A DNA stretch of 64,000 nt from an uncultured bacterium (GCA_937899715.1 CALCNX010000090.1:1-64000), one strand, 5' to 3'. Shown: positions 3,256 through 38,126, numbered from the stretch's first letter. The notes: a model not told the origin generated them from the letters alone. Numbers and translations are program-made.

Positions 3256-3366
3256 GTGCTTTATTGCGAATATTTATTCTGAGATGACCAACAATTGACG
3301 TGCAATGCTCTTCAACATCTTGGTTGGTCGGACTTCAAATTTTTATCATATTTTTTCTACTTGTCT

Positions 3367-5040: not shown

Positions 5041-5062
5041 AAATACTTCAACAAATACCAAT

Positions 5063-6304: not shown

Positions 6305-6327
6305 ATTGTTTTGAAGATAGAAAATAA

Positions 6328-7440
6328 TTAGTCCACCCAATCGGCTATAAACAAGTTTGTGTCTCGTGTGCCGCCGTTACTGCGGTTTGAGGAAAATATA
6401 AGTTTCTTGCCATCCGGCGAAAACATCGGAAACGCATTAAAAATACTTTCGCCCGTAATCTGCTCCAGCCCTGTGCCGTCTGTATTTATCATGTACAACT
6501 GAAAATCGTAGCCGCGCGTCGAATGATGATTCGAGGAGAAAATTATTTTTTTGCCCGATGGATGAAAGAACGGTGCCCAGTTTGCCTTGCCAAGATGCGT
6601 GATTTGGCGCAGATTGGAACCATCCACATTACAGATGTAAATTTCCATATTTGTCGGTGCCACAAGCCCCATGCTCAACAACTCCTTGTATTCCGCAACA
6701 TCCTCCGGCGTAGTGGGGCGCGATGCACGGAACACAAGCTGCTTACCATCGGGTGAGAAAAATGCGCCGCCGTCATATCCCAAGCCGCTTGTAACTTGCT
6801 TTTGATTTGTGCCGTCCACATTCATTGTCCAAAGTTCTAAGTCGCCGGAACGGTCGGAGGTGAAAACAATTTTATCCCCTTTGGGAGAAATTGTTGCCTC
6901 TGCATCGTAGCCGGACGTGGTGGTAAGCGGCTTCATATTACTCCCGTCAAGCGCTGCCACATAAATATCGTAGGAGCGATGAACAGCCCAGAGATATTTT
7001 TTAAGATACTCCGGCTTGGTCACAACGGGCATTGGCGTACAAACGCTGTCTGTGCGGTGCGTGGAGCCAAAAAGAACGTGCTTTCCGTCGGGCATGATGT
7101 ATGAACACGTTGTGCGTCCACGCCCTGTGCTGATGCGAGCAGGATGGTACGCAGAGTCGCGCATTTTGAGCGAGTCTGCCAACGGCAGGTAAAAAATCTG
7201 GTCGCACTGCAAGCCCCACTTGGGGTTATTCGACTGAAATGAAATTGCTTGACCGTTTACCCCGAAATAGGCTTCGGCGTTATCGCCACCAAAGGTAATT
7301 TGGCGAAGGTTTGCGAGGTGGCGGGATTCTTTGACTGCCGATTTTGCTGCTTGAGAAGATTGAACGGGTGCTTGAGCAGTCGCAATAAAAGGTATTTCGC
7401 AGAATGCGATTGCCAAAACAAGAAGTGCAGAAAGGCGCAT
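6328..7440 (-). CDS. Periplasmic TolB-like beta-propeller (PD40/WD40-like repeat) protein
   Basis: Signal peptide; repeated FSPDGK / SPKGDKIVFTSDRSG / FSPDGKKLIFSSNRS PD40 motifs. Confidence 0.65.
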   Translation of the reverse strand: MRLSALLVLAIAFCEIPFIATAQAPVQSSQAAKSAVKESRHLANLRQITFGGDNAEAYFGVNGQAISFQSNNPKWGLQCDQIFYLPLADSLKMRDSAYHPARISTGRGRTTCSYIMPDGKHVLFGSTHRTDSVCTPMPVVTKPEYLKKYLWAVHRSYDIYVAALDGSNMKPLTTTSGYDAEATISPKGDKIVFTSDRSGDLELWTMNVDGTNQKQVTSGLGYDGGAFFSPDGKQLVFRASRPTTPEDVAEYKELLSMGLVAPTNMEIYICNVDGSNLRQITHLGKANWAPFFHPSGKKIIFSSNHHSTRGYDFQLYMINTDGTGLEQITGESIFNAFPMFSPDGKKLIFSSNRSNGGTRDTNLFIADWVD

Positions 7441-7505
7441 GTATGCTTACAATGGATAATAAAAACTGACGATTTAGTTTCGATATAAATTAGCTCTGAT
7501 GCCGC

Positions 7506-7838
7506 TTAATTCCAATGCAAATCGGCGGCATGCTTGCGAATATGCAACTTTACTGCCGCACAAGCAAGCAGTTCTCTGAGTTCCAACGCTTCGTGTTTAT
7601 GCAGCACAAACGTCGCACCCGTGTTGCCGACGGCAATATGAATTTTCCGGCGGTGCAATGAATGAGCAAAGGATTTTTCCCACGCATCAAGGTCGAGTCG
7701 GTCTATCATTTCCCAAAATGTGCGGAAACCTTCTGGACTGAAGCGTAATTCAACAGTTCCAAATTCAACATGAAGTGAATCGCAATGATCACAGCGAAAA
7801 ACCTGCCCCTTGCGGGTTTGGTGGAGAATGATTGCCAT
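7506..7838 (-). CDS. Hypothetical Cys/His-containing small protein (110 aa)
   Basis: ORF only; CDHCDSLH motif; co-directional between a heme-oxygenase-like gene and the TolB-like gene. Confidence 0.35.
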   Translation of the reverse strand: MAIILHQTRKGQVFRCDHCDSLHVEFGTVELRFSPEGFRTFWEMIDRLDLDAWEKSFAHSLHRRKIHIAVGNTGATFVLHKHEALELRELLACAAVKLHIRKHAADLHWN

Positions 7839-7955
7839 AATAAATATTGAAAAGGAATGACAAATATACGACTAAAAATTGTAATTACACATAAAATTGC
7901 GCAAGTATGAGGAAACATACTTGCGAGAGGAGCATAAAATTTACTGTTCTTTAAC

Positions 7956-8570
7956 TTACACGGCTTCGGCGACACCAACTTCAAGCATTAGCCAGCGCTC
8001 CAAAGCAGCAAAGGTCTCTTTTGCACTGTGAATAATAACAGCTTCTTTTGCTTCATCATCATTCGCAGCGCTCACAATTGCTTCACAGTACGCCTTCCAC
8101 ATCACGCCCACATTTGCGCCGTAACTGGAAAAATAGGCAGTACCATTTTCGGCGGTAAAGCCAAACATTTTTTGCACTTGGCGAGCTTGAATCTGCCCGC
8201 CCAGCGTTGAGCCTTCCATCACGTACATCACACCGACAGCATCTTCGAGACTGTTCATTGTTGGTAAATCTTCTGTGCGGGGCAGAAGTGTAATGTCTGT
8301 ATCTGTCATCCCCAGCGCCCGTAAGTCTTGCTCCAAAAGCGCAATTTTACGGCGTTCATCGAAAGCGATACCAAGGCGAGACCATTCAAAGCCAGATAAT
8401 ACCTGCTCCAACGGCACGTGAAAGCCGTAGAATTTCTGCAAAAATTCTTTGTATTGCTCAATGCTCATCGTGCCATCCATCATGGCTTTGCCAAACGGAT
8501 TGCCTTCTACGCTGTCATGCTGCGGGCGCGTTTGGCTCTTGAGTTCAGTCAAAATGCGTGGTTTTTCCAT
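7956..8570 (-). CDS. Heme oxygenase-like protein (BphO/HemO family)
   Basis: N-terminal L..LK..T...H...E pattern and YVMEGSTLGGQ motif characteristic of heme oxygenases; ~200 aa. Confidence 0.55.
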   Translation of the reverse strand: MEKPRILTELKSQTRPQHDSVEGNPFGKAMMDGTMSIEQYKEFLQKFYGFHVPLEQVLSGFEWSRLGIAFDERRKIALLEQDLRALGMTDTDITLLPRTEDLPTMNSLEDAVGVMYVMEGSTLGGQIQARQVQKMFGFTAENGTAYFSSYGANVGVMWKAYCEAIVSAANDDEAKEAVIIHSAKETFAALERWLMLEVGVAEAV

Positions 8571-8766
8571 TTTTTTGAATAGAATAGTTGTTAAAACTAA
8601 TTTAGACTAAGTATAAATAACTCTACAAATATAGAGTTCCAATTTCACATTTGCAAGCCTTATTTAGACACAATTCAAATAAGAAAAAAAGCAAGACAGG
8701 AATAGACCTCACAGGCTACTTCTACCTTGCTTTAATAGTTTGTAGTAATAGTTCGTAGTCAGCTTC

Positions 8767-9678
8767 TCACGGCTTCTGCAAGTTATCAGTATCAGCCAAA
8801 ATTTGTTCTATATACGCTAGAGGTCGCTCCCACAGGCGCTTTCCAGTGCGCTCGGTGAAAAAACCAAAATGCCCAAGATGTTTCACACCTGCGTCCTCCG
8901 GAGTTACACGCTCCATTTCAACCGAAATCCCTGTATAAAACTTCAAAATCTCCTGCCCTGTTCGCTCATTCGCAATGGGGTCGTCGCTCACGATATACGC
9001 CCGCCAAGGTAGCAGAACATCGTCGTAAAAATGATTTTTGATTGTTTTGCCAAAGAAATGCCGGAGATAGCGTGGCTGCCTGCACCATGCCGCCCACTCA
9101 CGCGCCACACCTTTGGGTAAATCCTCGCCCTGCCCGATAGCTTTTGCGGGCGCATACCCCAGAAGAAACGTTGTAAGCGGGATAAAAACATACCAAATGA
9201 ACGCCGTAAAATACTTGAACGGCGCAGGAAATATCCGCCAATAGCCAACGGAGGAGGCGATACTAACCACCCCTGCCAGTAAATGATGGTTCGGCATTAG
9301 CCCAATCAACTGCCCGCCCATGCTGTGCGCAATGACAAATTTCTTCAGGTGCGGATAATGCCAATGCAACCAGTTCAGCACACCCGGCATATCACGCTCC
9401 CCCCAATCGCGGGTATATGCCTCAAAACCACGTAACGATGCGGGACGCGAAGCGCCAATACCGCGATAATCGAATACCACCACCACAAATCCCTGCTCCG
9501 CCCAAAACTTCGCAAACTTCAGATAAAATTCTTTTTTGATACCCGTGCCACTATGAATTTGGATAGTCGCTTTTGCCTCGCCTATCGGCTCCATGACGAT
9601 TGCCGCAAGGTCGAAGCCGTCCGTAGCAGGTATGCTCACGGTTTTCGTTGTGAAACGGGGTTGGGTAAGAGTTTCCAT
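8767..9678 (-). CDS. Alpha/beta-fold hydrolase
   Basis: GxSxG nucleophile elbow AHSMGGQ; 303 aa. Confidence 0.6.
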   Translation of the reverse strand: METLTQPRFTTKTVSIPATDGFDLAAIVMEPIGEAKATIQIHSGTGIKKEFYLKFAKFWAEQGFVVVVFDYRGIGASRPASLRGFEAYTRDWGERDMPGVLNWLHWHYPHLKKFVIAHSMGGQLIGLMPNHHLLAGVVSIASSVGYWRIFPAPFKYFTAFIWYVFIPLTTFLLGYAPAKAIGQGEDLPKGVAREWAAWCRQPRYLRHFFGKTIKNHFYDDVLLPWRAYIVSDDPIANERTGQEILKFYTGISVEMERVTPEDAGVKHLGHFGFFTERTGKRLWERPLAYIEQILADTDNLQKP

Positions 9679-9786
9679 AGTTGGAGAGAGTATTTTGGGA
9701 ATAATGATTCTTAGTTTATACTAAACGTTCATTCAAATTGAGTGCTGTAAAACGCCTGTTATTGCGAATTTATGGGCAGTTTTTTG

Positions 9787-9903
9787 ACACGGATTGAAGA
9801 AGATTACACAGATTACACGGATGGTGCAAGGCAGTACAGCCCCGCAATGGTCTTGATTCTTCAGGAAAAATCCGTGTAATCCGCGAAATCTACCTAATCC
9901 GTG
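9787..9903. promoter_or_regulatory. Cluster of 4+ copies of GATTACACGGAT / ATCCGTGTAATC core motifs; candidate TF-binding array
   Basis: 12-bp perfect inverted repeat at 9811-9822 / 9870-9881 plus partial copies at 9788, 9802 and 9895, upstream of the alpha/beta hydrolase gene. Confidence 0.4.
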
Positions 9904-9949
9904 CCAAGAAAAAAGAATTGTTCTTGAAGCTGACCTTTTATTGGCGCTC

Positions 9950-10816
9950 TTATTCAACGGTTCCAAGCAGATGAACAATGCTTTTATCAACACTCGTGAT
10001 ACGAAACGAGGTTTGCGCTTGCTCACCGTCACTGTACTCTAAGGCGACCGTATTCGGCAGCAAAACGGGCTTTTGGAATTGTACATCTATTTTTCGCACC
10101 GACATATTTTTTATGCGCTCAATCACCGACGCAAACATACTCACCGAATACCACCCATGCGCCAGTTTGCCCGGTAGTCCGAATGCCTTCGCCATCACGC
10201 CCGAAATATGAATCGGATTAAAATCTCCCGAAACCTTTGCATAATCCCAGCCGATTCCGGAGGGCATCACGATTTTTCCACCGTCTTTGAAAGCGGAAAA
10301 ATCTGCCCGTGAAGCGCTTTCGTCCTTGGGTGTAGCGCCTTTGTTCGCCGATTTTTCGCCACCTCCCCGCTTGGCAATGTAACCGCTTTTGCAAACAGCC
10401 ACCAGCGTTGAGGCTTGCCGTACTTCTACATGAAATTGTGGAAAAAGTGAGCCGGACGGCTTGCCTTCTATTGTCACAGACGATGTGAGCGATACGGGTT
10501 GCGTGAGTTCAGGCTTTTGCAGCATTTCAAGCGAATTGGTCAAATGTACCATGCCGGGCGCGGCAAGCGGAAATTTTCCATCGCGCATCATCGCAATTTG
10601 CGCCCGTTGCGCAAGCAAGTACAGCCATGTTACGGGAAAGTCGGCGCTATTCTGAAATCCGCAAAATGCTGAATACTCCTTGATGTTATCCGTATCCAGC
10701 GCAACATTCTCGAATGTTTTTTCGAGCGAAAAGGTTTCTTTCACAGGCGGATTGCCGCGCCTGAGCGTGAGCATCACGGGCAGAAGCATCTGCGGAATGG
10801 AATCAAGACGAGCCAT
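9950..10816 (-). CDS. MaoC-like (double hot-dog) dehydratase
   Basis: GDFNPIHISGVMAKAFGLPGKLAHG motif (MaoC D-x-N-x-x-H…G…I-A-H-G); start moved to ATG 10816. Confidence 0.6.
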   Translation of the reverse strand: MARLDSIPQMLLPVMLTLRRGNPPVKETFSLEKTFENVALDTDNIKEYSAFCGFQNSADFPVTWLYLLAQRAQIAMMRDGKFPLAAPGMVHLTNSLEMLQKPELTQPVSLTSSVTIEGKPSGSLFPQFHVEVRQASTLVAVCKSGYIAKRGGGEKSANKGATPKDESASRADFSAFKDGGKIVMPSGIGWDYAKVSGDFNPIHISGVMAKAFGLPGKLAHGWYSVSMFASVIERIKNMSVRKIDVQFQKPVLLPNTVALEYSDGEQAQTSFRITSVDKSIVHLLGTVE

Positions 10817-10877
10817 TATATCCTCCGAACGGTAAATTATACTGAACGATTGGTTAGTAAAGAAGTTACAATAATTA

Positions 10878-12899
10878 TCACTGCACACGTAGAATCTTCG
10901 TTGTCATTACCATTGCTCTGGCTTGCAGCCTTAGCACGTACACGCCTTGTGTTGCGCCCTGAGCTGACCACACAAATTGCTTCGCGCCCGCCTCGTATTC
11001 TCCCGTCCCTAAAACTGCCACTTCCTGCCCCAAAGCATTATAGACACTGAGACGCAATGATGTTCTGTGCGGAAGAAACGCTTCCACAGTAATATCGCCA
11101 AAAGCAGGGTTGGGGAAAGCGTGTATTTTTGCGGTATTCTCGGAACGTAAAGTTTCAATATTCTGTGAAACCGATGTTGAGACCGCGTTTAGCACGTACA
11201 GCCCACCGTTTGTACTGACGAAAACATTTTTGTTATTTGCACCCAAAGAAAAAGTGTTTACTGCCGCATTTGGGAAGGCTGGAAAGCGCTTCCAATCTAC
11301 ATTTACAGGCTTATACTCAATAACGCAGGGTCTCCGAAAATTAGCACGAATAAGCTCACGTTTTCTAGGCGCAAAAAAACTCCACTCTATTTCTATTCCC
11401 TGAACGTAAATAAATCCATACGAATAACGGTCTAATTCTGCAATCTCCACAGCCCAGTCTTGACAATCGTTATTAAAACATGAACCACCTTGAGCATAAA
11501 AAGTATTCTCATGTGCCGATAACTTCGTAATTACAGAAGAAGCCGAACCATTCGCCAGAAAGTACTGTTTCCAAGACTGACCTTTATTTACTGTATTAAC
11601 ATATCTACTTCTCATTGCTGCCCAAAGTGTATCTCCAATGACAGCAATCGTAGATAAACTTCCGATTTCATTAGAACTTACCGAAAGTGGTCGCCAATTT
11701 TGACCAAAATCATCGGAAAACAATACGCTTGCACCAATACTTGCAAATAGCTCTCTGTCACCATATTGACCAGTTATACACGACATAGTTGCACGAGTAT
11801 TACTTACGGGCTTTGTCTGTGTCCATTCTTTCCCATTAGAAGAACGCCAAACAATACTATCGCCCGAATGCGCCCAAAATTGAGTTTGTGTGGCTGCGAG
11901 AAACTCCGGTGACCGACCATTAGGCAGTACAAACTGCTCAAACCGATCCTTCTCCCAACGATGGTAGCCGCCCAGATTACGAAGCGACACAAATACTGCA
12001 CTATCATTGGCAACGACACTATTCACCCAACATAGGGATAATCCCTGATTGAAAGAACGCCAATCACACGTATTCGCGTCGGCAGTAATTACTCCTTGCG
12101 TTGTAGCAATAAAAATTCCTCTGGTGGTATTACTGATAGATTGAACCACGATATTACTTGGTAAATCACAGGTGCGCTGCCAAGAAATTCCTGCATTTAT
12201 GGAACGCCAAAGGGCGTTTGTAGAGATAGCAATAACATGAAACGAGTTTACGAAAGTAAGAGAGCGAGGTACGAAGGGTATTGCTGCATTTTGCCAAGTT
12301 TTCCCACTGTCAGCCGAGCGAAATAAGGTTGAATCTTTTGAACCGCACAGAATAATGGCGCTTGTTGAAGCAATGCACGTTAAAGTAGTCGAAAATAGTA
12401 TAGATTCTGCATTTGTACGATACTGCACTGAAACTGTATTATTTGTCACACGAAGCACACCGCGAGAGTGTAATATCAACGTCCAATTTTCAACGACCGA
12501 GACATCGGAAACCTGTGCAGAAGAAAGGCGATCATCTGCCGTTCTTAGTGAAATAGCTTCTTGCTGCCATATTTCACCACCATTCCACGATCTGAGCAGC
12601 GTAAAAAAACCATCAAAGCCTTTGTCAGGAATAAGCGTATAAAGTATATTATTGCGAGACGTAATTCCCCTCAACGAGTAAGTATCTTGTGGAGTTAAAA
12701 GTTCTTCCCAGCGCCTTCCCGCTACATTACGAAACAAACGCCCATATTCCCCGACAGCAAACAACGTGTCCCCCGAAGCAGTAATATGAGTAATATTCCC
12801 ACCTTCCGGACCAACAAAACGCCACGCGGGAGCGGAATTTTGCGCTAATGCGCCAGACCAAGCAAAAGCGAGAAAAAATAAGACTACAAGGGTTTTCAT
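10878..12899 (-). CDS. Secreted BNR/Asp-box repeat protein with T9SS C-terminal sorting domain
   Basis: Signal peptide; multiple S-x-D-x-G-x-T/S-W repeats (SADSGKTWQ, SINAGISWQ, SDDFGQNWR, NKGQSWK, SSNGKEWT); C-terminus …GVYVLRLQARAMVMTTKILRVQ resembles Por_Secre_tail. Confidence 0.65.
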   Translation of the reverse strand: MKTLVVLFFLAFAWSGALAQNSAPAWRFVGPEGGNITHITASGDTLFAVGEYGRLFRNVAGRRWEELLTPQDTYSLRGITSRNNILYTLIPDKGFDGFFTLLRSWNGGEIWQQEAISLRTADDRLSSAQVSDVSVVENWTLILHSRGVLRVTNNTVSVQYRTNAESILFSTTLTCIASTSAIILCGSKDSTLFRSADSGKTWQNAAIPFVPRSLTFVNSFHVIAISTNALWRSINAGISWQRTCDLPSNIVVQSISNTTRGIFIATTQGVITADANTCDWRSFNQGLSLCWVNSVVANDSAVFVSLRNLGGYHRWEKDRFEQFVLPNGRSPEFLAATQTQFWAHSGDSIVWRSSNGKEWTQTKPVSNTRATMSCITGQYGDRELFASIGASVLFSDDFGQNWRPLSVSSNEIGSLSTIAVIGDTLWAAMRSRYVNTVNKGQSWKQYFLANGSASSVITKLSAHENTFYAQGGSCFNNDCQDWAVEIAELDRYSYGFIYVQGIEIEWSFFAPRKRELIRANFRRPCVIEYKPVNVDWKRFPAFPNAAVNTFSLGANNKNVFVSTNGGLYVLNAVSTSVSQNIETLRSENTAKIHAFPNPAFGDITVEAFLPHRTSLRLSVYNALGQEVAVLGTGEYEAGAKQFVWSAQGATQGVYVLRLQARAMVMTTKILRVQ

Positions 12900-12934
12900 A
12901 GCGAGGAGAAGAAAAATTCTAGACCAAAAACACG

Positions 12935-13450
12935 TTAGGCTACACGACGAACATACAGCGTTTTCAGCACCGAAGCAACAAGTTTTCCATCTTCGCCAAA
13001 AACTTCTACGGTGAATTTCGGTTCGGTCTTCGTGTTTGCGTCTGCCTCAGCCTTGATGTCCGCTATTTGCTCTGCTGTCAGCCGGAACTCGCATGAAACC
13101 GTGCCTTTGCCCGGAGAGCGAAACTGCACTTCAGCCGCTTTGTCCCAGACGATGTAGTCTTTGCCAAGATTATTGATAAGCATAAACACATAAAACGGGT
13201 CGGTCATGGCATAGAGCGAACCACCAAAATGAGTACGGAAGTAATTGCTATTGAACCAGCGAAGGGGCATTTCAACACGTATAAAACGAAAATCTTCGCT
13301 TATTTCTTTTACTCGCACACCTGCTCCAAAATAGGGTCCGTAGATATTGAGCAAAAAGCGGAGCATTTTGGGACCGATTTTGTAATTTCGCAAACCGCCT
13401 TGTTTGTGCTGTTTTGGCTGCTGTTCGGTTTTGATTTCTGTCGTCGTCAT
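12935..13450 (-). CDS. Hot-dog-fold thioesterase-like protein (DUF4442-like)
   Basis: ~170 aa, resemblance to YiiD C-terminal/DUF4442 family; start ATG 13450 avoids overlap with upstream gene. Confidence 0.4.
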   Translation of the reverse strand: MTTTEIKTEQQPKQHKQGGLRNYKIGPKMLRFLLNIYGPYFGAGVRVKEISEDFRFIRVEMPLRWFNSNYFRTHFGGSLYAMTDPFYVFMLINNLGKDYIVWDKAAEVQFRSPGKGTVSCEFRLTAEQIADIKAEADANTKTEPKFTVEVFGEDGKLVASVLKTLYVRRVA

Positions 13451-13514
13451 GGTTTTACTAATTAAACGTTTAGTATGTAAATGCTGTGAATTGTTCATTA
13501 TCATCACCGCGACT

Positions 13515-14186
13515 TTACGCTGCAAATGCATTCAAATCTATCATCAAACCAGTTTTCGCAAGCTGTTCATCGTTGATAACAGAACTATAATGCTTGCGAA
13601 GTTCACCAAAAAAGAGGTCGTAAGGCAAATCATGAAACGCACCATACTCATGCACATAATCCATGAAGACATTTCCGGCATGGTCGAACTGCTGGAAGAT
13701 AGAATCTTCCTTGCCATCAAATTCCAGTGTCGGGACGTTCAACTTCGTACACAGCGCCGCATTGAAGGCAGGTGTAGCCTTTACCCAGCGCCCCGAAAGC
13801 CATAATTCCGTACAGCCATGAAAAACCAGCAAATCGGTTTGCAACACACGCTCTACCTTCTCGGTGGCAATGTGATTGCGCACATTGAAGAACGAAAGTC
13901 GCGTCGGTATGCCCACCACTCGCGCAACAGCAGCCAGCAGAACTGCCTTTTCGACACAATAGCCGTAATTACGCTTTAGCAAATCGCTTGCTTTTAAGCC
14001 CGTCGGGCGCAAGTCAATTTTGTAGGGGTTGTACATAAAATCATCGCGGACGGCGTAATACAAGCGCGCGGCGTTTTCTTCCGGCGAGGCATCACGCTGC
14101 GAATGTTTGTGAGCGTACTCTATAACGGCAGGATTATCACTGTCCAAAAAATACGTTGGGCGAAGATAGGGAGCGGGTTCAAGCAT
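13515..14186 (-). CDS. Transglutaminase-like cysteine protease superfamily protein
   Basis: GYCVEKAVLLAAVARVVGIPTR (Cys nucleophile), downstream HGCTELW His and Asp; 223 aa. Confidence 0.55.
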   Translation of the reverse strand: MLEPAPYLRPTYFLDSDNPAVIEYAHKHSQRDASPEENAARLYYAVRDDFMYNPYKIDLRPTGLKASDLLKRNYGYCVEKAVLLAAVARVVGIPTRLSFFNVRNHIATEKVERVLQTDLLVFHGCTELWLSGRWVKATPAFNAALCTKLNVPTLEFDGKEDSIFQQFDHAGNVFMDYVHEYGAFHDLPYDLFFGELRKHYSSVINDEQLAKTGLMIDLNAFAA

Positions 14187-14245
14187 TAGTGTCGTTGGTA
14201 AAATGGGATAATAAAGTAAACGAGCGTTCAGGATAACAAGCGTTG

Positions 14246-14809
14246 CTACCCCGCAGAAAGACGTGTTTTTGCCCGCTCCAGCATTTCATCTATATAGCGT
14301 TTATCCCCGTAGATGCGCATAAACATGACAGCCCCTTCAAATTCCTGAACGCTCTGCTCGGCAATTCGCCGTGCGGCTTCGGGTTGGTAGGTGGCGGAAA
14401 AAATTTCCGTAAGCGCATCCGTCCAATCACGGAAGAATTCGCGCAAATACGGCGCAAACTCAGGCAGCGTGGAAAGCGTTTCCAGTGCGGTATTTGCCAT
14501 GAGGCAGCCGCCATCGCTTTTGGAGAACATTCGTTGCGCTTTGGCAAGAAATTTTTCTAATTTCTCTTCCGGCGTGAGTTTGTCGGAATACGCAAGTGCA
14601 AAAAGCGTCGTCTTAAAGTGCAGATGAACTCCGTGCAGCACCGCCTTCATCAGCTCTTCTTTGTTCTCGAAGTGATGATAAAACACGCCTTTAGTCAGTC
14701 CACACGCCGCCGCTAAGTCTGCCATCGACGTATTATGGTAGCCCTGCTTGCGAAAGACCCCTGCTGAGGTGAGGATAATTTCATCTTTGCTGAGTTTTTG
14801 AACGGGCAT
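14246..14809 (-). CDS. TetR/AcrR-family transcriptional regulator
   Basis: N-terminal HTH SMADLAAACGLTKGVFYHHFENKEELM. Confidence 0.75.
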   Translation of the reverse strand: MPVQKLSKDEIILTSAGVFRKQGYHNTSMADLAAACGLTKGVFYHHFENKEELMKAVLHGVHLHFKTTLFALAYSDKLTPEEKLEKFLAKAQRMFSKSDGGCLMANTALETLSTLPEFAPYLREFFRDWTDALTEIFSATYQPEAARRIAEQSVQEFEGAVMFMRIYGDKRYIDEMLERAKTRLSAG

Positions 14810-14892
14810 ATATCGGAAAACGGTGAAAGGAAGTGGTGTTGACAGAATAAACTTACTAAACGTTCGTTCAATATCAAAAATATTTTTTAGAA

Positions 14893-16977
14893 TTATTCTA
14901 CTCCCATCGGCACATCTACATTGAATGTTGTCCCTTGCCCATACTCGCTTTCAACCATAATTTCTGCACCCATAGCGTCCACAAGTTTTTTCACAATGGA
15001 CAATCCCAAGCCCGTAGAATCCTCTCCGCCAGTCGGCTTGGCAGAAAGCCGTGCAAACTTTCCAAACATTCTTGTTTTGTCTTCATCGTTTAGTCCCGGA
15101 CCTTCATCGCGGACAGCAATACGCACGAAGGTCGCTTTTCCACCATCGGCGCTAATATTTTTTTGCACCGACACCCACACACGCTTCCCTTTGGGCGAGT
15201 ATTTCAGGGCGTTATCCAGCAAATTTTCTACCACTTCCGCCATCGCCGATTCATCGGTTTTGAGTTCAATGTTGTCGTCCGATACCTCCACAAGTATCGT
15301 AATATCTTTCGCTGCGGCGTGTGCATGATGCTCCTCTGCCAAATTCTGCACAAGCCGGGCAACGTTAAACCGTCTTGTTTCAAGGGTTTTACCACCTTGC
15401 TCAAGAGCATTCAGACTGAGCAGTTTTGTAATCGTGTTTAGCATTCGCTCCGATGATTGCAGAATACGCTCCCCCATAGCGGTAATGCGATCTAGCGGAA
15501 GATTTGCCGCTTGCGCCAGCGTTGAGGACGACATCATAATACCCGTCAGTGGATTTTTCAAGTCGTGCGCCACAATGCTGAGAAGTTCATCTTTTTCGTG
15601 ATTCAGCGCCTCCAATCGCTGATTAGCACTTTCCAATCGTTGGTTTGCTTCGTACAGATGTTCATTTTTGACATCCAGTTCCATATTGGACGTTGCAAGC
15701 GCCGTATTGGATTCCTGAATGTGTTTCGACTGCTCTTCCAGTTCGCGCTGTTGCCGCAAAATGACCGCATTAACCTCGCGCAAAGCAGCTTCAGAGCGGG
15801 CTTTGAGACGATACCGATTGATGGCAAGCCCAAGCAAAATTATCACAAACACCAAACCAAGTATAAGCGTATTACGCAGTGTGCTGAGGCGCTCTTGCTC
15901 TTTTTCTGCCAGCAGCAATACTTTATCTTTTCGCTCCGCAAGGCGCATAATATCAAGCGTCTTCATCCGTTCTTCGATATTGAAGGAGAGCAAAGAATCA
16001 CGCATTGCGGCAGCACGGCGGTAATAATCTAATGCAATATCGTGTCTGCCTACCTGAGAATACATCAGCGAAAAACGTTCGCATATAAGCGCAATGTCCT
16101 CAAATGCTTTTGTGCTGTCTGCTACTCGCAGCCCACGTTCGGCAGTAGCAAAGGCAAGCGGGAAGCGCTTTTCAGCCGCATAAATGGCAGCAAGATTTTC
16201 CAGCGAGCGGACGATATATTGATTGATTTTTTTTCGCTCAAAAAACTGAAGCGCCTCTTTCTGGTAATACGCCGCCGAATCGTACTTTTCCAATGCCAAA
16301 AAGACCGTACCGATGTGATACAATGCCACGTGCGCATAATAATCTTCCTTGCCCAGCCTTCCCCATTCAAACGCCTCACGCTCCAAACGAAGCGCCTCAG
16401 AAATATCACCGGACTTGAGCGCAATATCACCCAAGTTTCCCAGCACGAGCGCCAACCCGGCTTTGTGCTTTGCTGCACGAAAAATTGCTTCGGAACGCTT
16501 AAAATAATCTTTTGCAAGTGCCATTTTACCTTGCGCCTTGTGCATATAGCCTAAATTATTGAGCACAAAAGCCTGACGGACTTTCTCGCCCAGCACTTCG
16601 TAAATATCGTACGATTCCAAGAGCGCCTCCAGCCCTGCGTTGTAATGGCGCTCATAGATAGACACAATGCCTCTAATGCCCAGTGACCGCGCCTGTCCTG
16701 ACTTATAGCCGATTTTTTTTGCACGAAGAAGTGCCTCGTTTGCATAGATAAGTGCAGTATCAGGAAACGTATTGCGGACAGAAAACCCAATTTCAATCAT
16801 GCGATTCACAAGTGCGGTATCGTGCGTGGCGGGCTTGGCACGGAGTTCTTTCGCTAGAATTTGCTTGAGCGAGTCCGCTTCTCGTGTTTGCGCAAGAAGA
16901 GTATTGGCTCTACACGAACCAACCGAAAGCAATACAGAAACTATAATGATGGTGATAACCTTCATAACTTCGCTCAT
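14893..16977 (-). CDS. Sensor histidine kinase with N-terminal TPR repeats, TM helix and coiled coil (no adjacent response regulator)
   Basis: HisKA H-box SIVAHDLKNPL; HATPase_c N/G1/G2 boxes (RDEGPGL…GLGLSIVKKL); TPR-like repeats N-terminal. Confidence 0.8.
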   Translation of the reverse strand: MSEVMKVITIIIVSVLLSVGSCRANTLLAQTREADSLKQILAKELRAKPATHDTALVNRMIEIGFSVRNTFPDTALIYANEALLRAKKIGYKSGQARSLGIRGIVSIYERHYNAGLEALLESYDIYEVLGEKVRQAFVLNNLGYMHKAQGKMALAKDYFKRSEAIFRAAKHKAGLALVLGNLGDIALKSGDISEALRLEREAFEWGRLGKEDYYAHVALYHIGTVFLALEKYDSAAYYQKEALQFFERKKINQYIVRSLENLAAIYAAEKRFPLAFATAERGLRVADSTKAFEDIALICERFSLMYSQVGRHDIALDYYRRAAAMRDSLLSFNIEERMKTLDIMRLAERKDKVLLLAEKEQERLSTLRNTLILGLVFVIILLGLAINRYRLKARSEAALREVNAVILRQQRELEEQSKHIQESNTALATSNMELDVKNEHLYEANQRLESANQRLEALNHEKDELLSIVAHDLKNPLTGIMMSSSTLAQAANLPLDRITAMGERILQSSERMLNTITKLLSLNALEQGGKTLETRRFNVARLVQNLAEEHHAHAAAKDITILVEVSDDNIELKTDESAMAEVVENLLDNALKYSPKGKRVWVSVQKNISADGGKATFVRIAVRDEGPGLNDEDKTRMFGKFARLSAKPTGGEDSTGLGLSIVKKLVDAMGAEIMVESEYGQGTTFNVDVPMGVE

Positions 16978-17010
16978 TCCTCGTTACCGAACTACACACA
17001 GTCTTCAAAT

Positions 17011-18807
17011 CTAGGTTTTCTGCGGCGTTTTACCCACAATAAAATATGTTCTCATATTTCCTTTTCCTTTTATCTCAATTTCACCGCGCTCTTCCACCTC
17101 GTAGCCTTGTTCTGACGAGCTTTTGAGTGCCGAATAGACCTCCTCGGAAATATGGATTTTTCCCGCCTCACCGTGCGATTCCATACGTGAAGCCGTGTTC
17201 ACCGTATCGCCCCAAAGGTCGTACGCAAATTTTTTCGTGCCGATAATCCCCGCCACCACGCTTCCGGTGTGCATCCCAATTCGGATGTTCATAGCGGAAT
17301 CAAAGCCATTGCGCATCATTCGCTCCGAAAACACTTCCACCGCCGAAAGCATATCCAGCGCCGCTTTTATGGCAGCCTCCACGTGGTCGCGGCGTGGATA
17401 GGGTATCCCTGCGGCAATCATGTACGCGTCGCCAATAGTTTTGATTTTTTCTAAGCTATACTGCTCGGTAATGGCATCAAACACCGAAAAAATATCATCC
17501 AAAATCCGCACAATCTCCTCCGCCGAGTGCTGACCTGCAAGACGCGTAAAGCCTACAATATCCACAAATACCACCGTAACATTCTCAAACGTATCGGCAA
17601 TCGTACTTTCTCCGGCGCGAAGACGCTGGGCGATGGGCATGGGTAAGATATTGAGCAGAAGCCGCTCCAATTCTTGCTGCGCGTGTGCCAGTTCCACATT
17701 CCGCAGGCGATAAATTTCCGACTCTTTTTGCGCTTGCTCTGCTGCAAATCCCTGCTGCAAATACTGAATTGTTCGCTTACCATCTTGCAGCGCCGTTTGC
17801 TCGCGGAGCGCATGAAATCGCTCTAAATTGCTAAACGCTCGTTCAATATCACCTGTTGCTTTGTAGCATTGTGAAAGGAGTTCATGCACTTTCGCCACAC
17901 TAGCTAATGCCTGTGCACCCTGCAAACCCTCCTCTGCGCGGCGCAAGTAACCAAGCGCTTTTTCAGCACGCCCAGCGCGAAAATATACATCTCCAATCAC
18001 AAGCAATACTTGACTAAGTTCCATTGCGCTTAGTTCGCGTTCTCCGATTTCCAAAGCCACAAAAAGCAGCTCCAATGCTTTGTCAAAGCGTTCCTGCTCT
18101 GCGTACATCTCCGATACCCCAATGAGCGCCCTGCACACACCACTGATATTTCCTGCGTGTTTGTATGCCGCCAGCGCTTGCTCAAAATACAATCTCGATT
18201 GACTGTAGCCGCGTAGTTCCTTATGCGCCGAGGCAATACTGAAGAGTGCAGAAGCCCTTTCATCAGCATCGCTCAATCCCTCCAGCATCCTGAGTGCCTC
18301 GCGGTAGTGCTGCAAAGCAGTCTGCGCTTCGCCCAAGCCAAAGTACGCATCACCACTGGTGTTGTAAATCTTTGCCGATTCGAGTTCCAAGCCGTGCTCA
18401 TCGGTAACGGCGCGAGCTTTGGCAAGATATTCCAGCGCTGTGGTGAACATGGCAATACGAACATAGCACACTGCAGTCCAGCGCAAAGCACTTGCCTGTA
18501 CACGTGGCGCTTGCAGCATTTCAGCTTGCTTACTTATTTGAAAAAAACGCGGAAGTGCCTCATCAAACTGCGCTGCTTGTGCGGAAATAACAGCGACCGC
18601 AAGAGCACTTTCTAACTCTAACATTGTATCGCCGGAGGAGCGGGCATAACGAAGTGCTTCGAGCGCGTAGTCGTGCGCACGGGTGTTGTCGTGGTTGGCA
18701 AGGATATATGCTGCTTCCAGCAACAACTTCATACGGTCATCGCTATCGGCATAATCCATTCCACCATCGGCAAGAACGTCTTGAATGATTTTGAGACGTG
18801 CATTCAT
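17011..18807 (-). CDS. Class III adenylate/guanylate cyclase with N-terminal TPR domain
   Basis: CYCc motifs VTVVFVDIVGFT…KIKTIGDAYMIAAG…GIIGTKKFAYDLWGDTVNTASRMES. Confidence 0.8.
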   Translation of the reverse strand: MNARLKIIQDVLADGGMDYADSDDRMKLLLEAAYILANHDNTRAHDYALEALRYARSSGDTMLELESALAVAVISAQAAQFDEALPRFFQISKQAEMLQAPRVQASALRWTAVCYVRIAMFTTALEYLAKARAVTDEHGLELESAKIYNTSGDAYFGLGEAQTALQHYREALRMLEGLSDADERASALFSIASAHKELRGYSQSRLYFEQALAAYKHAGNISGVCRALIGVSEMYAEQERFDKALELLFVALEIGERELSAMELSQVLLVIGDVYFRAGRAEKALGYLRRAEEGLQGAQALASVAKVHELLSQCYKATGDIERAFSNLERFHALREQTALQDGKRTIQYLQQGFAAEQAQKESEIYRLRNVELAHAQQELERLLLNILPMPIAQRLRAGESTIADTFENVTVVFVDIVGFTRLAGQHSAEEIVRILDDIFSVFDAITEQYSLEKIKTIGDAYMIAAGIPYPRRDHVEAAIKAALDMLSAVEVFSERMMRNGFDSAMNIRIGMHTGSVVAGIIGTKKFAYDLWGDTVNTASRMESHGEAGKIHISEEVYSALKSSSEQGYEVEERGEIEIKGKGNMRTYFIVGKTPQKT

Positions 18808-19005
18808 CTGCGTTGTAAGAACACAATCGTCATTGTGAAAACAGTGAAGGAGTTACAAAATCTTAGAAAGTGTCTGAAAATTGTGCCCCCTCATCCCAGC
18901 CTTCTCCCAGAGGGAGAAGGAGCAATAAATGAAGCCATTTTCTGAAGCCCTCTCCCTCTGGGAGAGGGTTGGGTGAGGGCTTAAAACGTATTTATAGACA
19001 TTTCC

Positions 19006-19671
19006 TTAGCGCTTCTTCCCCATAATAAACCAGCCATTTTGTTTGTTCCAGAGGAGCTCTATCATTTTGAATTTACATTCTTTGTAGAGTTTTAGATATT
19101 CGGGCGTAACATCATTTTCACATCGGTAGGCGAGTGCCGCCTGAATAGTCGTACCGATTTGAGGAAGCGTATAATCAATGCCAAGCCCTATTCCGCGCTG
19201 GTTGTCGTCGGGAGTATAGCTGATAATGCCCTTTACATCTATCAGATTCGGTGTGCTTTTCTGCCCGTAAAACTCGCTAATCCGCACACTCGGAAGAAGC
19301 TGAGACGTGACATCGCGCCATTCTCCGGCATCCAGCAAATACATCTTGAGTGTGCTACGCTTGCAGCCGTCGCCATCGCCAGGGTCGGTGATTTCTTGGT
19401 GGGCATAATACTTCGTTCCATCATCGGCAAGAAACAAGACAAACACCGTCTGCTCCGATGAATGGGTATCAGGATTCGTCGTCGTTTTGATTGACAAATA
19501 CCCGTTGGTGGCATCATAGACGACCTTATTCGTCGGCGAGGGAGTCATGGAGGCTTCAGGGCGCTTTAAGGGAAAACGCTGAAACACCTCACGCAGACTT
19601 TGCGCTGAGACGGGTACATTCCACAGAACAATAAAGGTGCTGAGAAGTAATGCAAAGAAAAATTGCTTCAT
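19006..19671 (-). CDS. Hypothetical secreted protein
   Basis: Signal peptide MKQFFFALLLSTFIVLWNVPVSAQ; no recognisable domain. Confidence 0.45.
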   Translation of the reverse strand: MKQFFFALLLSTFIVLWNVPVSAQSLREVFQRFPLKRPEASMTPSPTNKVVYDATNGYLSIKTTTNPDTHSSEQTVFVLFLADDGTKYYAHQEITDPGDGDGCKRSTLKMYLLDAGEWRDVTSQLLPSVRISEFYGQKSTPNLIDVKGIISYTPDDNQRGIGLGIDYTLPQIGTTIQAALAYRCENDVTPEYLKLYKECKFKMIELLWNKQNGWFIMGKKR

Positions 19672-19829
19672 GGTGATGGAACAAGAAAGAATGAACAAGG
19701 ATGGCGACAGCTAAGCAGCAAGAGCAAATGACGGAAAAACAAGCCGGGAGTTACGCTTTGCTCAATGATTCGGCAAATTAGAACAAAGGTTCTATTACCA
19801 ATAATTCGGACATTACCGAATACTGGAGT

Positions 19830-19894
19830 GCGGAATTTATTCCGCATTAAGTATGTACGCGGCTGACGAGAACAAAAGCGGAATAAATTCCGCA
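19830..19894. promoter_or_regulatory. Two copies of a perfect 16-bp palindrome GCGGAAT(TT/AA)ATTCCGC, 49 bp apart; candidate operator pair
   Basis: 19830-19845 and 19879-19894; intergenic, ~160-220 bp upstream of the secreted-protein gene start (19671). Confidence 0.4.
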
Positions 19895-19916
19895 TTCTCA
19901 ATGTCCAAGCTATTAA

Positions 19917-20828
19917 CTAGAATAAGAGTTCTATCGGAACAAGAACCGTTTCCTCTGCTGTCGCCGAGCGCATTGCACGACGATTGAGCAGCTTAACATT
20001 TAGTTTGATACCGATAGTACCACGCAAGGTTTTGCCCTTGAGGGAAACTTTGGGCAAGTTTTTGATTCCCATCGTCACAAGAAATACTCCCGCATCAAAA
20101 AAGCCCGAAATGCTCATAAATTCAGGCTTGAGGGCGCTATTAAGTTTTTCGTCAGCCTTATTGCCTGCAAAGAACTGAAGCCGTGTTTGTGAAGAGTCCA
20201 GTACAGGCTCGGCAACCTCCAAATCGTTCACCAGCGCCATGACAACACGATTTTTCTCGGCATCAACAGGCTTGGCAAAATCAACACGCAGCCCTTTGAT
20301 TGCAAAAGTGCATTCACCCGGCTTTGCCGTTTTCCCTTTGCCGGAGGTTGCTTCTATGCTAACCCGTGAGATGTTAAATGTTGGTGGAATCTGCTGTGTT
20401 TCATAAATATTCGACCACAAAAGCTGTTTCTCTGTGCCGGTCGCAGTTCGGTATAATTCTACTTCGACTTTTCGCGCATACCCTGGAATACGTTCCCCAA
20501 CAAAAGGCGTTTGGTACGGCACTTCTATGCGCTCATCGCCACTGAATTTGTAAGCGAGAAGAAGTTCACGCGCAGGAATATTTGCCTCAGTGGCAATGTC
20601 CGAAGAAAATCGAACATTGTCACCAAAATACAAAATTGTAGAACGAAGCGCAGAAGCGGCTTTCGGGGCAATCTTTTCCAGTTCTTTTCCCTGCCCGTAT
20701 AAATTCCCACAGAGTACCAACGACGACGACAATAAAATGAACAAAACACCAACGGTATGAAGAATTGATGCAAGTACTGATGTGCTCCAAAGTCTAATTT
20801 TTCGCATAACGTTGTGCGACAATATCAT
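19917..20828 (-). CDS. Hypothetical membrane-anchored protein
   Basis: N-terminal TM helix; 303 aa; no recognisable domain. Confidence 0.4.
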   Translation of the reverse strand: MILSHNVMRKIRLWSTSVLASILHTVGVLFILLSSSLVLCGNLYGQGKELEKIAPKAASALRSTILYFGDNVRFSSDIATEANIPARELLLAYKFSGDERIEVPYQTPFVGERIPGYARKVEVELYRTATGTEKQLLWSNIYETQQIPPTFNISRVSIEATSGKGKTAKPGECTFAIKGLRVDFAKPVDAEKNRVVMALVNDLEVAEPVLDSSQTRLQFFAGNKADEKLNSALKPEFMSISGFFDAGVFLVTMGIKNLPKVSLKGKTLRGTIGIKLNVKLLNRRAMRSATAEETVLVPIELLF

Positions 20829-20956
20829 GGAAAGTCAATAAATTCAAGCGCAATATAGCCACAAAAAAAGTGCAGCCCAACGCTTTTTCGCGCTTGACTG
20901 CACCCTGTAAACAAATATGCAACTTGTTACTCGCAGGCGCGAACATTCAACAAAAT

Positions 20957-22480
20957 CTAGCTCAGAATCGGTTCATTCGCCGGCTTCTCCATAAATGGCA
21001 GCCCGAAATCTTGACAAACCAATTTGTGCGTGGTCTCGGCGGTCATTAGTACGCCCGGTACGCCAGCGCCCGGATGGGTGCTAGTGCCAACAATGTAGAG
21101 ATTCGGCACATCTTCACTGCGGTTATGCGGACGGAAGTACGCTGTTTGCTGGATAGATGGCTCTACGCCCCATGCGCTGCCCAAATGGCTATTGCGGTCG
21201 CGCTTGAAATCTTCCGGCGTAAAGAGTTCCAGCACATCCAGATTTGCCCGTAAATCCTTCATGCCAAAATCTTCTTCGAGAAACTGAAGCACCTTATCAG
21301 CATACTTCTGCTTAATGTCGTCCCACTTCAGTCCCGATGCGAGATTGGCGACCGGAATGAGCACATACATACTCTCGCAGCCTTCGGGAGCCATGTCGCT
21401 ATCGGTGCGCGTCGGCACGTGGAGATACATTGAGAAGTCTTCCGGCAGAATTTTTTTGTCGAAAATATCTTTCACAAGCTCTTTGTAACGCTCCGAGAGA
21501 ATCAAGGTATGGTGCAGAAGTTCGGGATATTTCTTTTTGGTACCGATGTACATCAGAAAAGCACTCATCGAATAGTCCAGTTTCAGCACTTTCTTATCTG
21601 TCCATTTTTTGCGGTGTTCAGGCTTGAGAAGTTTCGTCTGCGTGTGCACAAAGTCTGCATTGGAGACAACTGCATCTGCGCCAAACACTTCACTACCCGT
21701 GCGGACACCAGTTGCACGACCATTCTCAACGATAATTTCTTCGACGGGAGAATTTGTTTTTATCGTACCGCCTAGTTCCAAAAATACTTTCTCTAATGCC
21801 TCCACAAACGCATACATACCGCCTTTAGCAAACCAAACGCCGCCGTTCTTCTCCAAATACGGAATCATCAAATAAATTGCCGGAGCACGGAAAGGACTTG
21901 CGCCAATAAAAAGCGGATGGAAAGAAAAAGTAAAACGAGTACGGAAGTCCTTGAAATAACGCTTGACAAACGTGTATGCCGGAAAAAGTGCGTTCAATTT
22001 CAGTGCCTTGGGCACAAAGCTGAAATACGTTCTCAAATCCATAAAGGGCGTTGTACCCAAGCCGTCGGTAATCACGGCATCATAGAGTTTGCGTGAGTCC
22101 TCAATAAAACGGTCGTAATTTGCAGCATCGTCCTTGTTGAATTTAGCAAATTCTTGGCGCATTTTGGCGCTGTCGCCCGTATAGTCAATGTAGGTTTTAT
22201 CGTGAAAGTAGATGCGGTAAAAAGGGTCGAGATAGGTCAAATCCAAGTAATCTTCCATCTTTCTGCCCGCAGCAGCAAATACCTTCTCAATCACATCCGG
22301 CGCAGTGATAAGCGAGGGTCCCATATCGAAAGTGTACCCACTTTTTTTCATTTGATACGCATGACCGCCCACGCGCTCATTTTTTTCAAATATCGTTACA
22401 TCAAAACCCTGCGCCTGCAAACGCACGGCAGCAGAAAGCCCGCCAAAGCCGGAACCGATAATAGCAATTTTTTTACGCAT
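20957..22480 (-). CDS. Phytoene desaturase-family (CrtI/CrtD-like) FAD-dependent oxidoreductase
   Basis: N-terminal Rossmann KIAIIGSGFGGLSAAVRLQAQGFDVTIFEKNERVGGHA; length 507 aa typical of CrtI family. Confidence 0.65.
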   Translation of the reverse strand: MRKKIAIIGSGFGGLSAAVRLQAQGFDVTIFEKNERVGGHAYQMKKSGYTFDMGPSLITAPDVIEKVFAAAGRKMEDYLDLTYLDPFYRIYFHDKTYIDYTGDSAKMRQEFAKFNKDDAANYDRFIEDSRKLYDAVITDGLGTTPFMDLRTYFSFVPKALKLNALFPAYTFVKRYFKDFRTRFTFSFHPLFIGASPFRAPAIYLMIPYLEKNGGVWFAKGGMYAFVEALEKVFLELGGTIKTNSPVEEIIVENGRATGVRTGSEVFGADAVVSNADFVHTQTKLLKPEHRKKWTDKKVLKLDYSMSAFLMYIGTKKKYPELLHHTLILSERYKELVKDIFDKKILPEDFSMYLHVPTRTDSDMAPEGCESMYVLIPVANLASGLKWDDIKQKYADKVLQFLEEDFGMKDLRANLDVLELFTPEDFKRDRNSHLGSAWGVEPSIQQTAYFRPHNRSEDVPNLYIVGTSTHPGAGVPGVLMTAETTHKLVCQDFGLPFMEKPANEPILS

Positions 22481-30004: not shown

Positions 30005-30788
30005 CTATCAATCCGACGATAAAATTACTAAACGTTGTAGTCCACATTATAAGTGGGCTACAACTACTTTGCAGTCTGTTGCAGCCGCTTTCTTTTGTTG
30101 TGTTTTTTTGGTTTCATGCGCTTCTCAGCCGACCGTCATTGCGACTGATGCCCTTCAGTCGGATGCACAAATGGATGTAGAAATTGCTCCGACCTTTATC
30201 GGATTTCGTCCGAAAAATACTGGTACAGAGATTCGTACCGGATACCTCTTTTACCCCGGCGGTTTGGTGGATGAACGCGCGTACGCTCCTCTATGCCGGG
30301 CTATTGCAGCACAAGGATTTTTCGTTGCAATCGTTCCTGTCCCCTTCAAGCTGGCGGTTTTTGACCCTTTTGTTGCTAATCCCGTCATCCGCGAAAATCG
30401 TTACATCCGTTCATGGGCTATCGGCGGACATTCGCTTGGTGGCGCGATGGCAGCGCGATTCGTCTATCAAGACTCAACCGCTTGCAAAGGTCTTATTTTG
30501 TACGCCGCATACCCGGATGCTTCCAATGATTTATCGAAGCGAGTAATACCAGTGCTTTCTATCTCCGGTAGTCTTGACGGCTTGGCAACTCCAGCAACGA
30601 TTGAGAATAACAAAAAATTCTTGCCTGCTCCGCCTCAAACGCGCTATGTCGTGCTAGAAGGCGCGAATCACGCACAATACGGCAATTACGGCAAACAAAA
30701 CCGTGATAACGACGCAACCATGAGCTATGAAGAGCAGCAACGACGCACCGCCGAAGAAACAGTGCGCTTTTTGAAAACACTCAAATAA
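29997..30788 (+). CDS. Alpha/beta hydrolase lipoprotein
   Basis: Lipobox …FLVSCAS; GGHSLGG nucleophile elbow; start uncertain (ATG 29997 overlapping upstream stop by 8 nt, or in-frame TTG at ~30069). Confidence 0.55.
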   Translation: MRNYQSDDKITKRCSPHYKWATTTLQSVAAAFFCCVFLVSCASQPTVIATDALQSDAQMDVEIAPTFIGFRPKNTGTEIRTGYLFYPGGLVDERAYAPLCRAIAAQGFFVAIVPVPFKLAVFDPFVANPVIRENRYIRSWAIGGHSLGGAMAARFVYQDSTACKGLILYAAYPDASNDLSKRVIPVLSISGSLDGLATPATIENNKKFLPAPPQTRYVVLEGANHAQYGNYGKQNRDNDATMSYEEQQRRTAEETVRFLKTLK

Positions 30789-36593: not shown

Positions 36594-36841
36594 AACGGCT
36601 TTCCTAACGCTTGAGAGGATGAAAGAAAACAACAATAAATACAACCACTGCTTGCCTTGCGAATAGGCAGCGCCGAGCGAAATTAACCAATCCATGTGCA
36701 ATTCGCAAACGGAATCCCGAAAAAAGCCTGCGAGGAAAATTTATTTGCCCACCCCAAAGTTTTTCTTCATCTTTGCACCGTGCAAATGGCTCTCCATGCT
36801 GCATATTTCTACCATAGCTCCAAACAGTAGTGTAAAAGTAA

Positions 36842-37207: not shown

Positions 37208-37227
37208 TTTTTGCCCGAGAAATCATC

Positions 37228-38121: not shown

Positions 38122-38126
38122 AACAA

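Follow-up and report, generated by a model that had tools for sequence, protein, structure and literature searches.

Introduction

Autoregulated TetR-family repressors of the TetR/tetO, QacR or AcrR type are proteins of about 190 amino acids with an N-terminal helix-turn-helix (HTH) and a C-terminal ligand domain; they bind a palindrome of 15-18 bp over their own promoter and control adjacent genes. Here we analysed a stretch of 64,000 nucleotides (nt) from an uncultured bacterium (GCA_937899715.1 CALCNX010000090.1:1-64000), called the window at its full length, whose genome belongs to Kapaibacteria/Ignavibacteria. An 18-bp dyad occurs there in seven copies around a TetR-family gene at 14246-14809. 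It is very probable, from comparative evidence, that the dyad is the operator of the encoded factor, that the copies make up a local regulon and that those inside genes are apparently kept by selection. Protein size, domain order and the palindrome over the own promoter are common to the classical repressors and to this locus, and the control of adjacent genes is predicted here as well. In contrast to them, the locus has a Bacteroidota -33/-7 promoter, one predicted operator per gene in a co-directional cluster of five genes, two conserved intragenic operators in addition, and hydrolase, hotdog and MaoC-type enzymes as presumed targets instead of an efflux pump.

FadR of Bacillus and Thermus and PsrA of Pseudomonas are acyl-CoA-responsive local repressors of the TetR family, acting on acyl-CoA-handling enzymes such as hydratases and thioesterases. 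The operator of PsrA is of the type CAAAC-N2-4-GTTTG, which resembles the form ACCAAAC...GTTTGGT. However, there are no beta-oxidation genes at the locus studied here, and its TetR protein scored far below the NCBIfam cut-offs of FadR (28 bits against 200) and PsrA (22.5 against 300). The best NCBIfam match was AcuR, with 62 bits against a cut-off of 247, and no equivalog was reached by the TetR or by the proteins of its predicted targets.

Operators inside genes are also known, such as lac O2 inside lacZ, the PurR site inside purB and the roadblocks formed by CcpA at cre. Those proteins belong to the LacI/GalR family, whereas the protein considered here belongs to the TetR family. Common to both would be a site in the coding sequence (CDS) serving as auxiliary operator or roadblock, a role which conservation suggests here, and codons that satisfy protein and operator together. 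For a TetR-family protein, a conserved site inside a gene is not, to our knowledge, a textbook case. The dyad and its TetR would form an ordinary kind of switch, not a new kind of system, and the unusual feature is the intragenic sites.

In its DNA word the locus is like PaaR (TTHA0973) of Thermus thermophilus, a TetR-family repressor of phenylacetate catabolism with the operator CNAACGNNCGTTNG (PMC6651687, PMC9493321). The window sites share with it the AACG-NN-CGTT core and the centre of 2 nt, and the ACC...GGT variant of distant homologues (e.g. ACCAAACGATCGTTTGGT in locus L086) fits the PaaR operator at every specified position. PaaR sites overlap promoters, and the PaaR effector is an acyl-CoA, phenylacetyl-CoA. 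On the other side, the outer pair is T/A in the window sites and C/G in PaaR, and the dyad is longer here (18 bp, ACT...AGT); the PaaR operator of Burkholderia cenocepacia, ACCGACCGGTCGGTT, is without the 2-nt centre. Pfam and NCBIfam found no paaABCDE or paaK domains among the genes preceded by sites. We take the likeness to PaaR as a resemblance in DNA reading, not as membership.

Results and Discussion

Seven copies of an 18-bp dyad

The original prediction had described a recurrent motif of about 21 nt in three copies, with the second and third agreeing at 19 of 21 positions. All three were found on the + strand, at 9720 (ACTAAACGTTCATTCAAATT), 14855 (ACTAAACGTTCGTTCAATAT) and 17830 (GCTAAACGCTCGTTCAATAT), and the 19/21 agreement and the gene context given for them (alpha/beta hydrolase, TetR and histidine kinase, adenylate cyclase CDS) were correct. 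The real unit, though, is not an asymmetric 21-mer but an 18-bp dyad (14855-14872 at the TetR gene), with the consensus AYTRAAYG-NN-CRTTYART, that is A(C/T)T(A/G)AA(C/T)G-NN-C(G/A)TT(C/T)A(G/A)T. The copy at the TetR gene reads ATTGAACG-AA-CGTTTAGT in gene orientation. A first scan of the window with the consensus pattern added the sites at 10841, 13457 and 14215, and an all-against-all comparison of 20-mers revealed a close fourth copy at 5579-5596.

To avoid circularity, a weight matrix was built solely from the TetR-upstream sites in nine other genomes. Applied to the window, it gave exactly seven sites, all with at least 15.2 bits, and the next-best position had 9.6 bits. In 300 shuffles, sites of at least 14 bits numbered 0.31 on average and never more than two, and 0.09 were expected at 16 bits or more. 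The seven sites are confined to 5579-17847, a span of 12.3 kb with the TetR gene in it, and none lies in the remaining 52 kb. Four of them (5579-5596, 10841-10858, 13457-13474 and 14215-14232) were absent from the original prediction, which had listed the third as a mere variant with an AAACGTT core at 13459. This variant is a true member of the family, but two others named with it are not: 30027-30040 is a lone half-site below 6 bits, and the one at 49519 belongs to another palindrome, TTAGAAC-N4-GTTCTAA at 49513-49530, upstream of a second TetR gene.

It had also been proposed that the copies are a small dispersed repeat, and both a mobile (or REP-like) element and recurrence by chance should be considered. 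One direct pair with 18 of 20 positions in common is at chance level, as it is expected about twice per shuffled window, and pairwise similarity was therefore dropped as an argument. The seven-site family as a whole is far beyond chance: seven sites stand against 0.3 expected. Similarity ends at 18-20 bp with no repeated flanks, the seven copies are tied to one gene cluster, and they hold fixed orthologous positions at the same genes across genomes at synonymous saturation. Rfam matched no family within 5000-21000. So a repeat or a chance recurrence has almost no probability left.

Other readings of the region gave little. We rejected an RNA hairpin formed by the dyad, since its loop, of 2 nt, would not be feasible. 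Terminator-like sites were fewer than shuffling predicts, and a sigma-70 promoter scan gave 21 matches against 18.1 expected, which is uninformative for the host phylum. Literature string searches with the operator words returned nothing usable.

The TetR protein, its promoter and its operator

The product of 14246-14809 is, by its domains, a standard TetR-family member. The N-terminal HTH reached 60 bits with PF00440 (cut-off 24) and the C-terminal ligand and dimerisation domain 47 bits with PF21993 (cut-off 27), and the protein matched solved TetR structures such as 3qbm and 3on4 over its full length. The dyad in front of it lies 45 nt from the ATG and 20 nt from the stop codon (14893-14895) of the histidine kinase gene, and is kept upstream of its homologues, which is consistent with autoregulation.

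The -7 consensus of sigma-A in Bacteroidota is TAnnTTTG (PMC9723704). A promoter of this type, TTTG-N19 followed by the -7 box, had been proposed at the 14855 copy, and our analysis agrees: the motif lies exactly between a conserved TTG and the TAnnTTTG box, occupying the spacer and providing the first T of the -7 box. TetR orthologues show TTG-N19/20 followed by TATGTTTG, TACGTTTG, TATATTTG or TATCTTTG, and a perfect TAnnTTTG is present at the TetR gene in nine related loci (L002, L003, L004, L051, L130, L132, L134, L137 and L053). A dyad over the spacer and the -7 box is in the classic position of a repressor. There is, however, no support for the -33/-7 promoter as a part of the repeated module, as canonical boxes can be recognised solely at the TetR copy and not at the other four upstream copies.

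The operator is kept upstream of the TetR orthologues in L001-L005, L050-52, L130-134 and L137. L001-L005 carry TetR orthologues of 98-67% identity, all in metagenome-assembled genomes of Kapaibacteria/Ignavibacteria, and their sites upstream of TetR are ACTAAATGAACGTTTAGT, ATTAAACGCTCGTTTAGT, ACTTACCAACCGTTCAGT and similar. A metagenome scan covered TetR homologues down to about 35% identity. Most of about 50 loci (35-98% identity, differing gene contexts) had the dyad upstream of the TetR homologue, either as ACT...AGT or as ACC...GGT such as ACCAAACAAACGTTTGGT or ACCTACCAATCGTTTGGT.

These two forms are matched with two types of recognition helix. Helices GL(T/S)K(G/A)(V/I/L)F, the TKG[V/I/L]F type, pair with T3/A16 (ACT...AGT), and helices GL(L/I/Q)KGS(L/I/M), the [L/I/Q]KGS[L/I] type, pair with C3/G16 (ACC...GGT), where 3 and 16 are dyad positions. 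The association held in about 23 of 25 cases, with about two exceptions. The two types are intermingled in a neighbour-joining tree that uses only the C-terminal domains, therefore the association is not one inherited split. This covariation of recognition helix and operator is the strongest computational evidence that this TetR reads this dyad.

The dyad might instead be bound by another regulator, or the TetR might be an activator at some or all sites. The operator role is deduced from sequence, four of the five upstream sites show no recognisable overlapping promoter, position does not dictate repression, and the window has a second TetR gene at 49545-50270. But the dyad tracks this TetR subfamily across many unrelated gene contexts and covaries with its recognition helix, the second TetR gene is directly preceded by a different palindrome of its own, and the dyad at the promoter of the first has the repressor position described above. 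We consider this explanation quite improbable.

In the preferred interpretation, a TetR dimer would bind the 18-bp dyad ACT(A/G)AACG-NN-CGTT(C/T)AGT. At its own gene, TetR on the spacer and on the first base of the -7 box would block initiation and cause autorepression. A small ligand would release the repressor; an acyl-CoA or lipid-like compound is a guess from the gene content.

Genes preceded by the dyad and their conservation

The suggestion that the motif is a shared promoter or operator module was upheld, since it closely precedes five genes of the same direction, one of which is the TetR gene. All genes of the region are on the - strand, and the five upstream sites are 6-45 nt from the start codons (Table 1). 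The start codons of the MaoC and DUF4442 genes were set by comparison with L001, in which the DUF4442 protein has 171 amino acids.

Table 1. Genes, putative promoter and dyad sites in the TetR region of the window
Feature	Position	Strand	Score or domain	Remarks
TetR-family regulator gene	14246-14809	-	PF00440 1.8e-16; PF21993 TetR_C_13_2 2.7e-12	187 amino acids
Putative sigma-A promoter of TetR gene	14848-14878	-		TTTG 14878-14875, 19-nt spacer, TAAGTTTA 14855-14848
Dyad, TetR	14855-14872		25.0 bits	45 nt upstream of TetR ATG
Dyad, MaoC	10841-10858		22.5 bits	24 nt upstream of MaoC ATG
Dyad, peptidase	5579-5596		22.4 bits	inside M28/PDZ peptidase CDS (- strand), codons A-E-R-A-F-S
Dyad, cyclase	17830-17847		20.5 bits	inside TPR adenylate cyclase CDS (- strand), codons 321-326, I-E-R-A-F-S
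Dyad, hydrolase	9720-9737		16.2 bits	41 nt upstream of alpha/beta-hydrolase ATG
Dyad, DUF4442	13457-13474		15.8 bits	6 nt upstream of DUF4442 ATG
Dyad, transglutaminase-like	14215-14232		15.2 bits	28 nt upstream of transglutaminase-like ATG
M28/PDZ peptidase	5063-6340	-		carries the 5579-5596 dyad
Alpha/beta hydrolase (Hydrolase_4)	8767-9678	-	Pfam	site 41 nt upstream
MaoC-like dehydratase	9950-10816	-	PF01575 1.5e-16	
BNR/T9SS protein	10878-12899	-	Pfam	
DUF4442 (hotdog-fold)	12935-13450	-	PF14539 7.8e-22	
Transglutaminase-like	13515-14186	-	PF01841 4e-15	
TPR histidine kinase	14893-16977	-	Pfam	
TPR adenylate cyclase	17011-18807	-	Pfam	

Dyads 6-41 nt upstream would put the transglutaminase-like, DUF4442, MaoC and alpha/beta-hydrolase genes under the same TetR. 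At these four genes TetR might act by occlusion of an atypical promoter or as a roadblock to read-through, the latter being possible because the genes are co-directional and the spacers short. Occlusion and roadblock look alike at the four sites, as promoter boxes are not recognisable there.

In 16 related loci (168 kb) we found 49 sites at 14 bits or more, and all of them fell into two classes. Sites of the first class are upstream of a TetR, transglutaminase-like, DUF4442, alpha/beta-hydrolase or MaoC gene. Those of the second are inside flanking CDSs, namely at conserved positions of the cyclase and the peptidase and at two places in L132. The site at MaoC is the most constant of the target sites, present in 10 related loci as (A/G)CT(A/G)A(C/T)CAATCGTT(C/T)A(A/G)(T/C). 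The transglutaminase-like site has counterparts in L001, L003 and L132, and the DUF4442 site has them upstream of DUF4442 or hydrolase paralogues in L003, L004, L051 and L133. In L001 the hydrolase site is kept, and of the seven sites six reach 14 bits, the exception being the one at DUF4442.

In distant genomes, the commonest gene after the TetR homologue is a homologue of the alpha/beta hydrolase of the window, with such TetR-hydrolase pairs in L007, L060, L062, L064-67 and L071. It means that the alpha/beta hydrolase is, as far as gene order tells, the conserved core target predicted for this TetR subfamily.

Between the DUF4442 and MaoC genes there is a BNR/Sortilin-type gene with a C-terminal sorting domain of the type IX secretion system (T9SS), which has no dyad. 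It is absent from L001, the nearest relative, and from L003, and found in the same place in L002, L004 and L051. By this distribution it looks to be a variable insertion inside the predicted regulon. The 271-nt spacer between the MaoC and hydrolase genes contains an inverted repeat (9801-9822/9870-9891) with 22-nt arms, AGATTACACAGATTACACGGAT and ATCCGTGTAATCCGCGAAATCT, which are 86% complementary and 47 nt apart; it includes a tandem GATTACAC(A/G)GAT. The same spacer in the 98%-related L001 has a different sequence. The inverted repeat could be terminator-like or an inserted element.

Dyads inside coding regions

Two of the seven sites lie inside CDSs, one in the adenylate cyclase gene and one in the peptidase gene. 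Eight orthologues of the cyclase, with protein identities as low as 61%, have the dyad at 20-25 bits, and five of the peptidase, with identities as low as 74%, have it at 17-22 bits. Where the amino acid is the same, most of these lineages share just 40-52% of codons with each other, which puts synonymous sites near saturation. Nevertheless, all cyclases (8/8) and peptidases (5/5) have the same base in third codon position at operator columns 3 (T), 6 (A) and 12 (G), whereas third positions at the N and Y columns of the operator vary, as do nearly all flanking codons. Degenerate operator columns take up the amino acid replacements, which are Ile/Thr (ATT/ACT) and Ala/Ser (GCG/TCG).

In a recoding test each peptide was randomly recoded with the codon usage of its own gene, for the eight cyclase and five peptidase orthologues. 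For the cyclase, 10-20% of the random synonymous recodings attained 14 bits; for the peptidase, 5-14% did. The sites are retained at 17-25 bits in about six cyclase and about four peptidase lineages, all near synonymous saturation. Since recoding rarely reaches 14 bits, such retention in so many lineages is unlikely without selection at the DNA level, and the comparison suggests that the coding-region dyads are kept by selection on the DNA itself.

Other relatives show how the sites are gained and lost. The cyclase of L137, syntenic but more distant, has lost the site and reads GAG CAA GCC, and in cyclase homologues away from the TetR cluster the peptide has diverged. L132 (GCA_049241505.1) has dyads at 6130-6147 and 11130-11147 (21.7 and 23.4 bits) inside the CDSs of p303 and the histidine kinase, two genes of the operon that lies before TetR, and a second hydrolase gene there has two dyads in front of it. 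Intragenic sites seem to have been gained repeatedly in the operon upstream of TetR.

Several observations weigh against our interpretation of the locus. Among the upstream sites, those at 9720, 13457 and 14215 reach only 15-16 bits, those at 13457 and 14215 are missing from some orthologous spacers, and, as said above, canonical boxes are recognisable at the TetR copy only. Within genes, the peptides around both sites are themselves conserved, and the lineages with intragenic sites are few and not fully independent. In a sliding-window scan of four cyclase orthologues the site had 14 of 18 positions invariant, which many windows equalled; because this score was not exceptional, the scan was replaced by the recoding test.

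These points allow one alternative of appreciable weight, in which the upstream copies are real operators and the two coding-region copies are by-products of a conserved ER[A/S]FS peptide and codon bias; TetR may bind them, with no selected function. The flanking peptide CYKxxGD(I/T)ERAFSNLERFH is indeed strongly conserved, the plain invariance score of the cyclase site is unexceptional, and recoding to 14 bits in 5-20% of trials makes the site in a single lineage not improbable. The lack of promoter elements beside the coding-region copies would also fit. What this alternative explains poorly is the retention of 17-25 bits in about six and four lineages despite near-saturated synonymous sites, with the constrained third positions invariant, the degenerate ones varying and the replacements on degenerate columns. 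By chance, 64 kb should contain 0.3 sites at 14 bits or more and 0.09 at 16 or more, which makes two near-perfect extra sites unlikely as well, and further intragenic sites were gained in the kinase and p303 genes of L132, in the same upstream operon. We therefore regard the by-product explanation as unlikely, though it is the sole alternative that deserves real attention.

Returning to selected sites, their role might be that of a block. An internal or antisense promoter had been suggested for the copy at 17830, and no -33/-7 elements exist beside it on either strand; at neither CDS copy was TTG/TAnnTTTG found in the right register, with both strands checked. There is also no conserved in-frame Met downstream of the cyclase copy from which a cyclase with the catalytic domain only could start. 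Because no promoter elements flank the copies and no internal start follows the cyclase copy, a roadblock or auxiliary-operator role is favoured: the intragenic dyads are most likely roadblock or auxiliary operators, which would extend control to the flanking operons. We put forward tentatively, as a possibility a little short of an even chance, that the coding-region dyads are functional in the full sense, i.e. that a ligand-sensing TetR gates the cyclase/kinase operon and the downstream peptidase by roadblock, that the operator constrains ER[A/S]FS and that the helix code is readable.

Both intragenic dyads have the same frame and orientation, encoding E-R-(A/S)-F-S and then Asn (AAT). This shared frame was not treated as evidence, because it is a coincidence of about one in six. 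In the peptidase, the dyad falls in a clade-specific loop that distant M28/PDZ homologues lack.

Other palindrome and repeats in the window

The palindrome TTAGAAC-N4-GTTCTAA has two copies in the window, at 49513-49530 and 19778-19794. The first is about 15 nt upstream of the second TetR-family gene (+ strand; PF13972 and PF00440) and is probably the own operator of that regulator. The second is about 80 nt upstream of a gene for 230 amino acids (19006-19698), which heads the p230-cyclase-kinase gene row. None of the 140 fetched loci contains TAGAAC-N4-GTTCTA, and there is thus no support for conservation of the 19778 copy.

Two more repeats are unrelated to the operator. The open reading frame at 3295-5040 has internal repeats about 102-105 bp apart (4270-4900, motif AAAAATGGGG(T/C)TTTAT, from the 20-mer self-comparison), and 35767-40700 has paralogous segments with an offset of 4338 bp (35767/40105, 35982/40320 and 36331/40669).

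Significance

The analysis turns an anonymous repeated word into a concrete and testable regulon of an uncultured Kapaibacteria lineage, with one TetR and seven predicted operators. The arrangement TTG-N19-TAnnTTTG is a promoter example for a group without mapped transcription starts. The helix/operator covariation offers a pair of specificity variants for engineering orthogonal TetR switches in Bacteroidota; if the code is readable as proposed, TKGVF with T3/A16 and LKGSL with C3/G16 would be a natural specificity code within one TetR subfamily. The intragenic operators would be a natural case of CDSs under the dual constraint of protein and operator, in which amino acid replacements in ER[A/S]FS would be allowed only at degenerate operator columns. 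They also suggest that in this organism a metabolite sensor may be coupled in regulation with an operon for cyclic AMP and two-component signalling.

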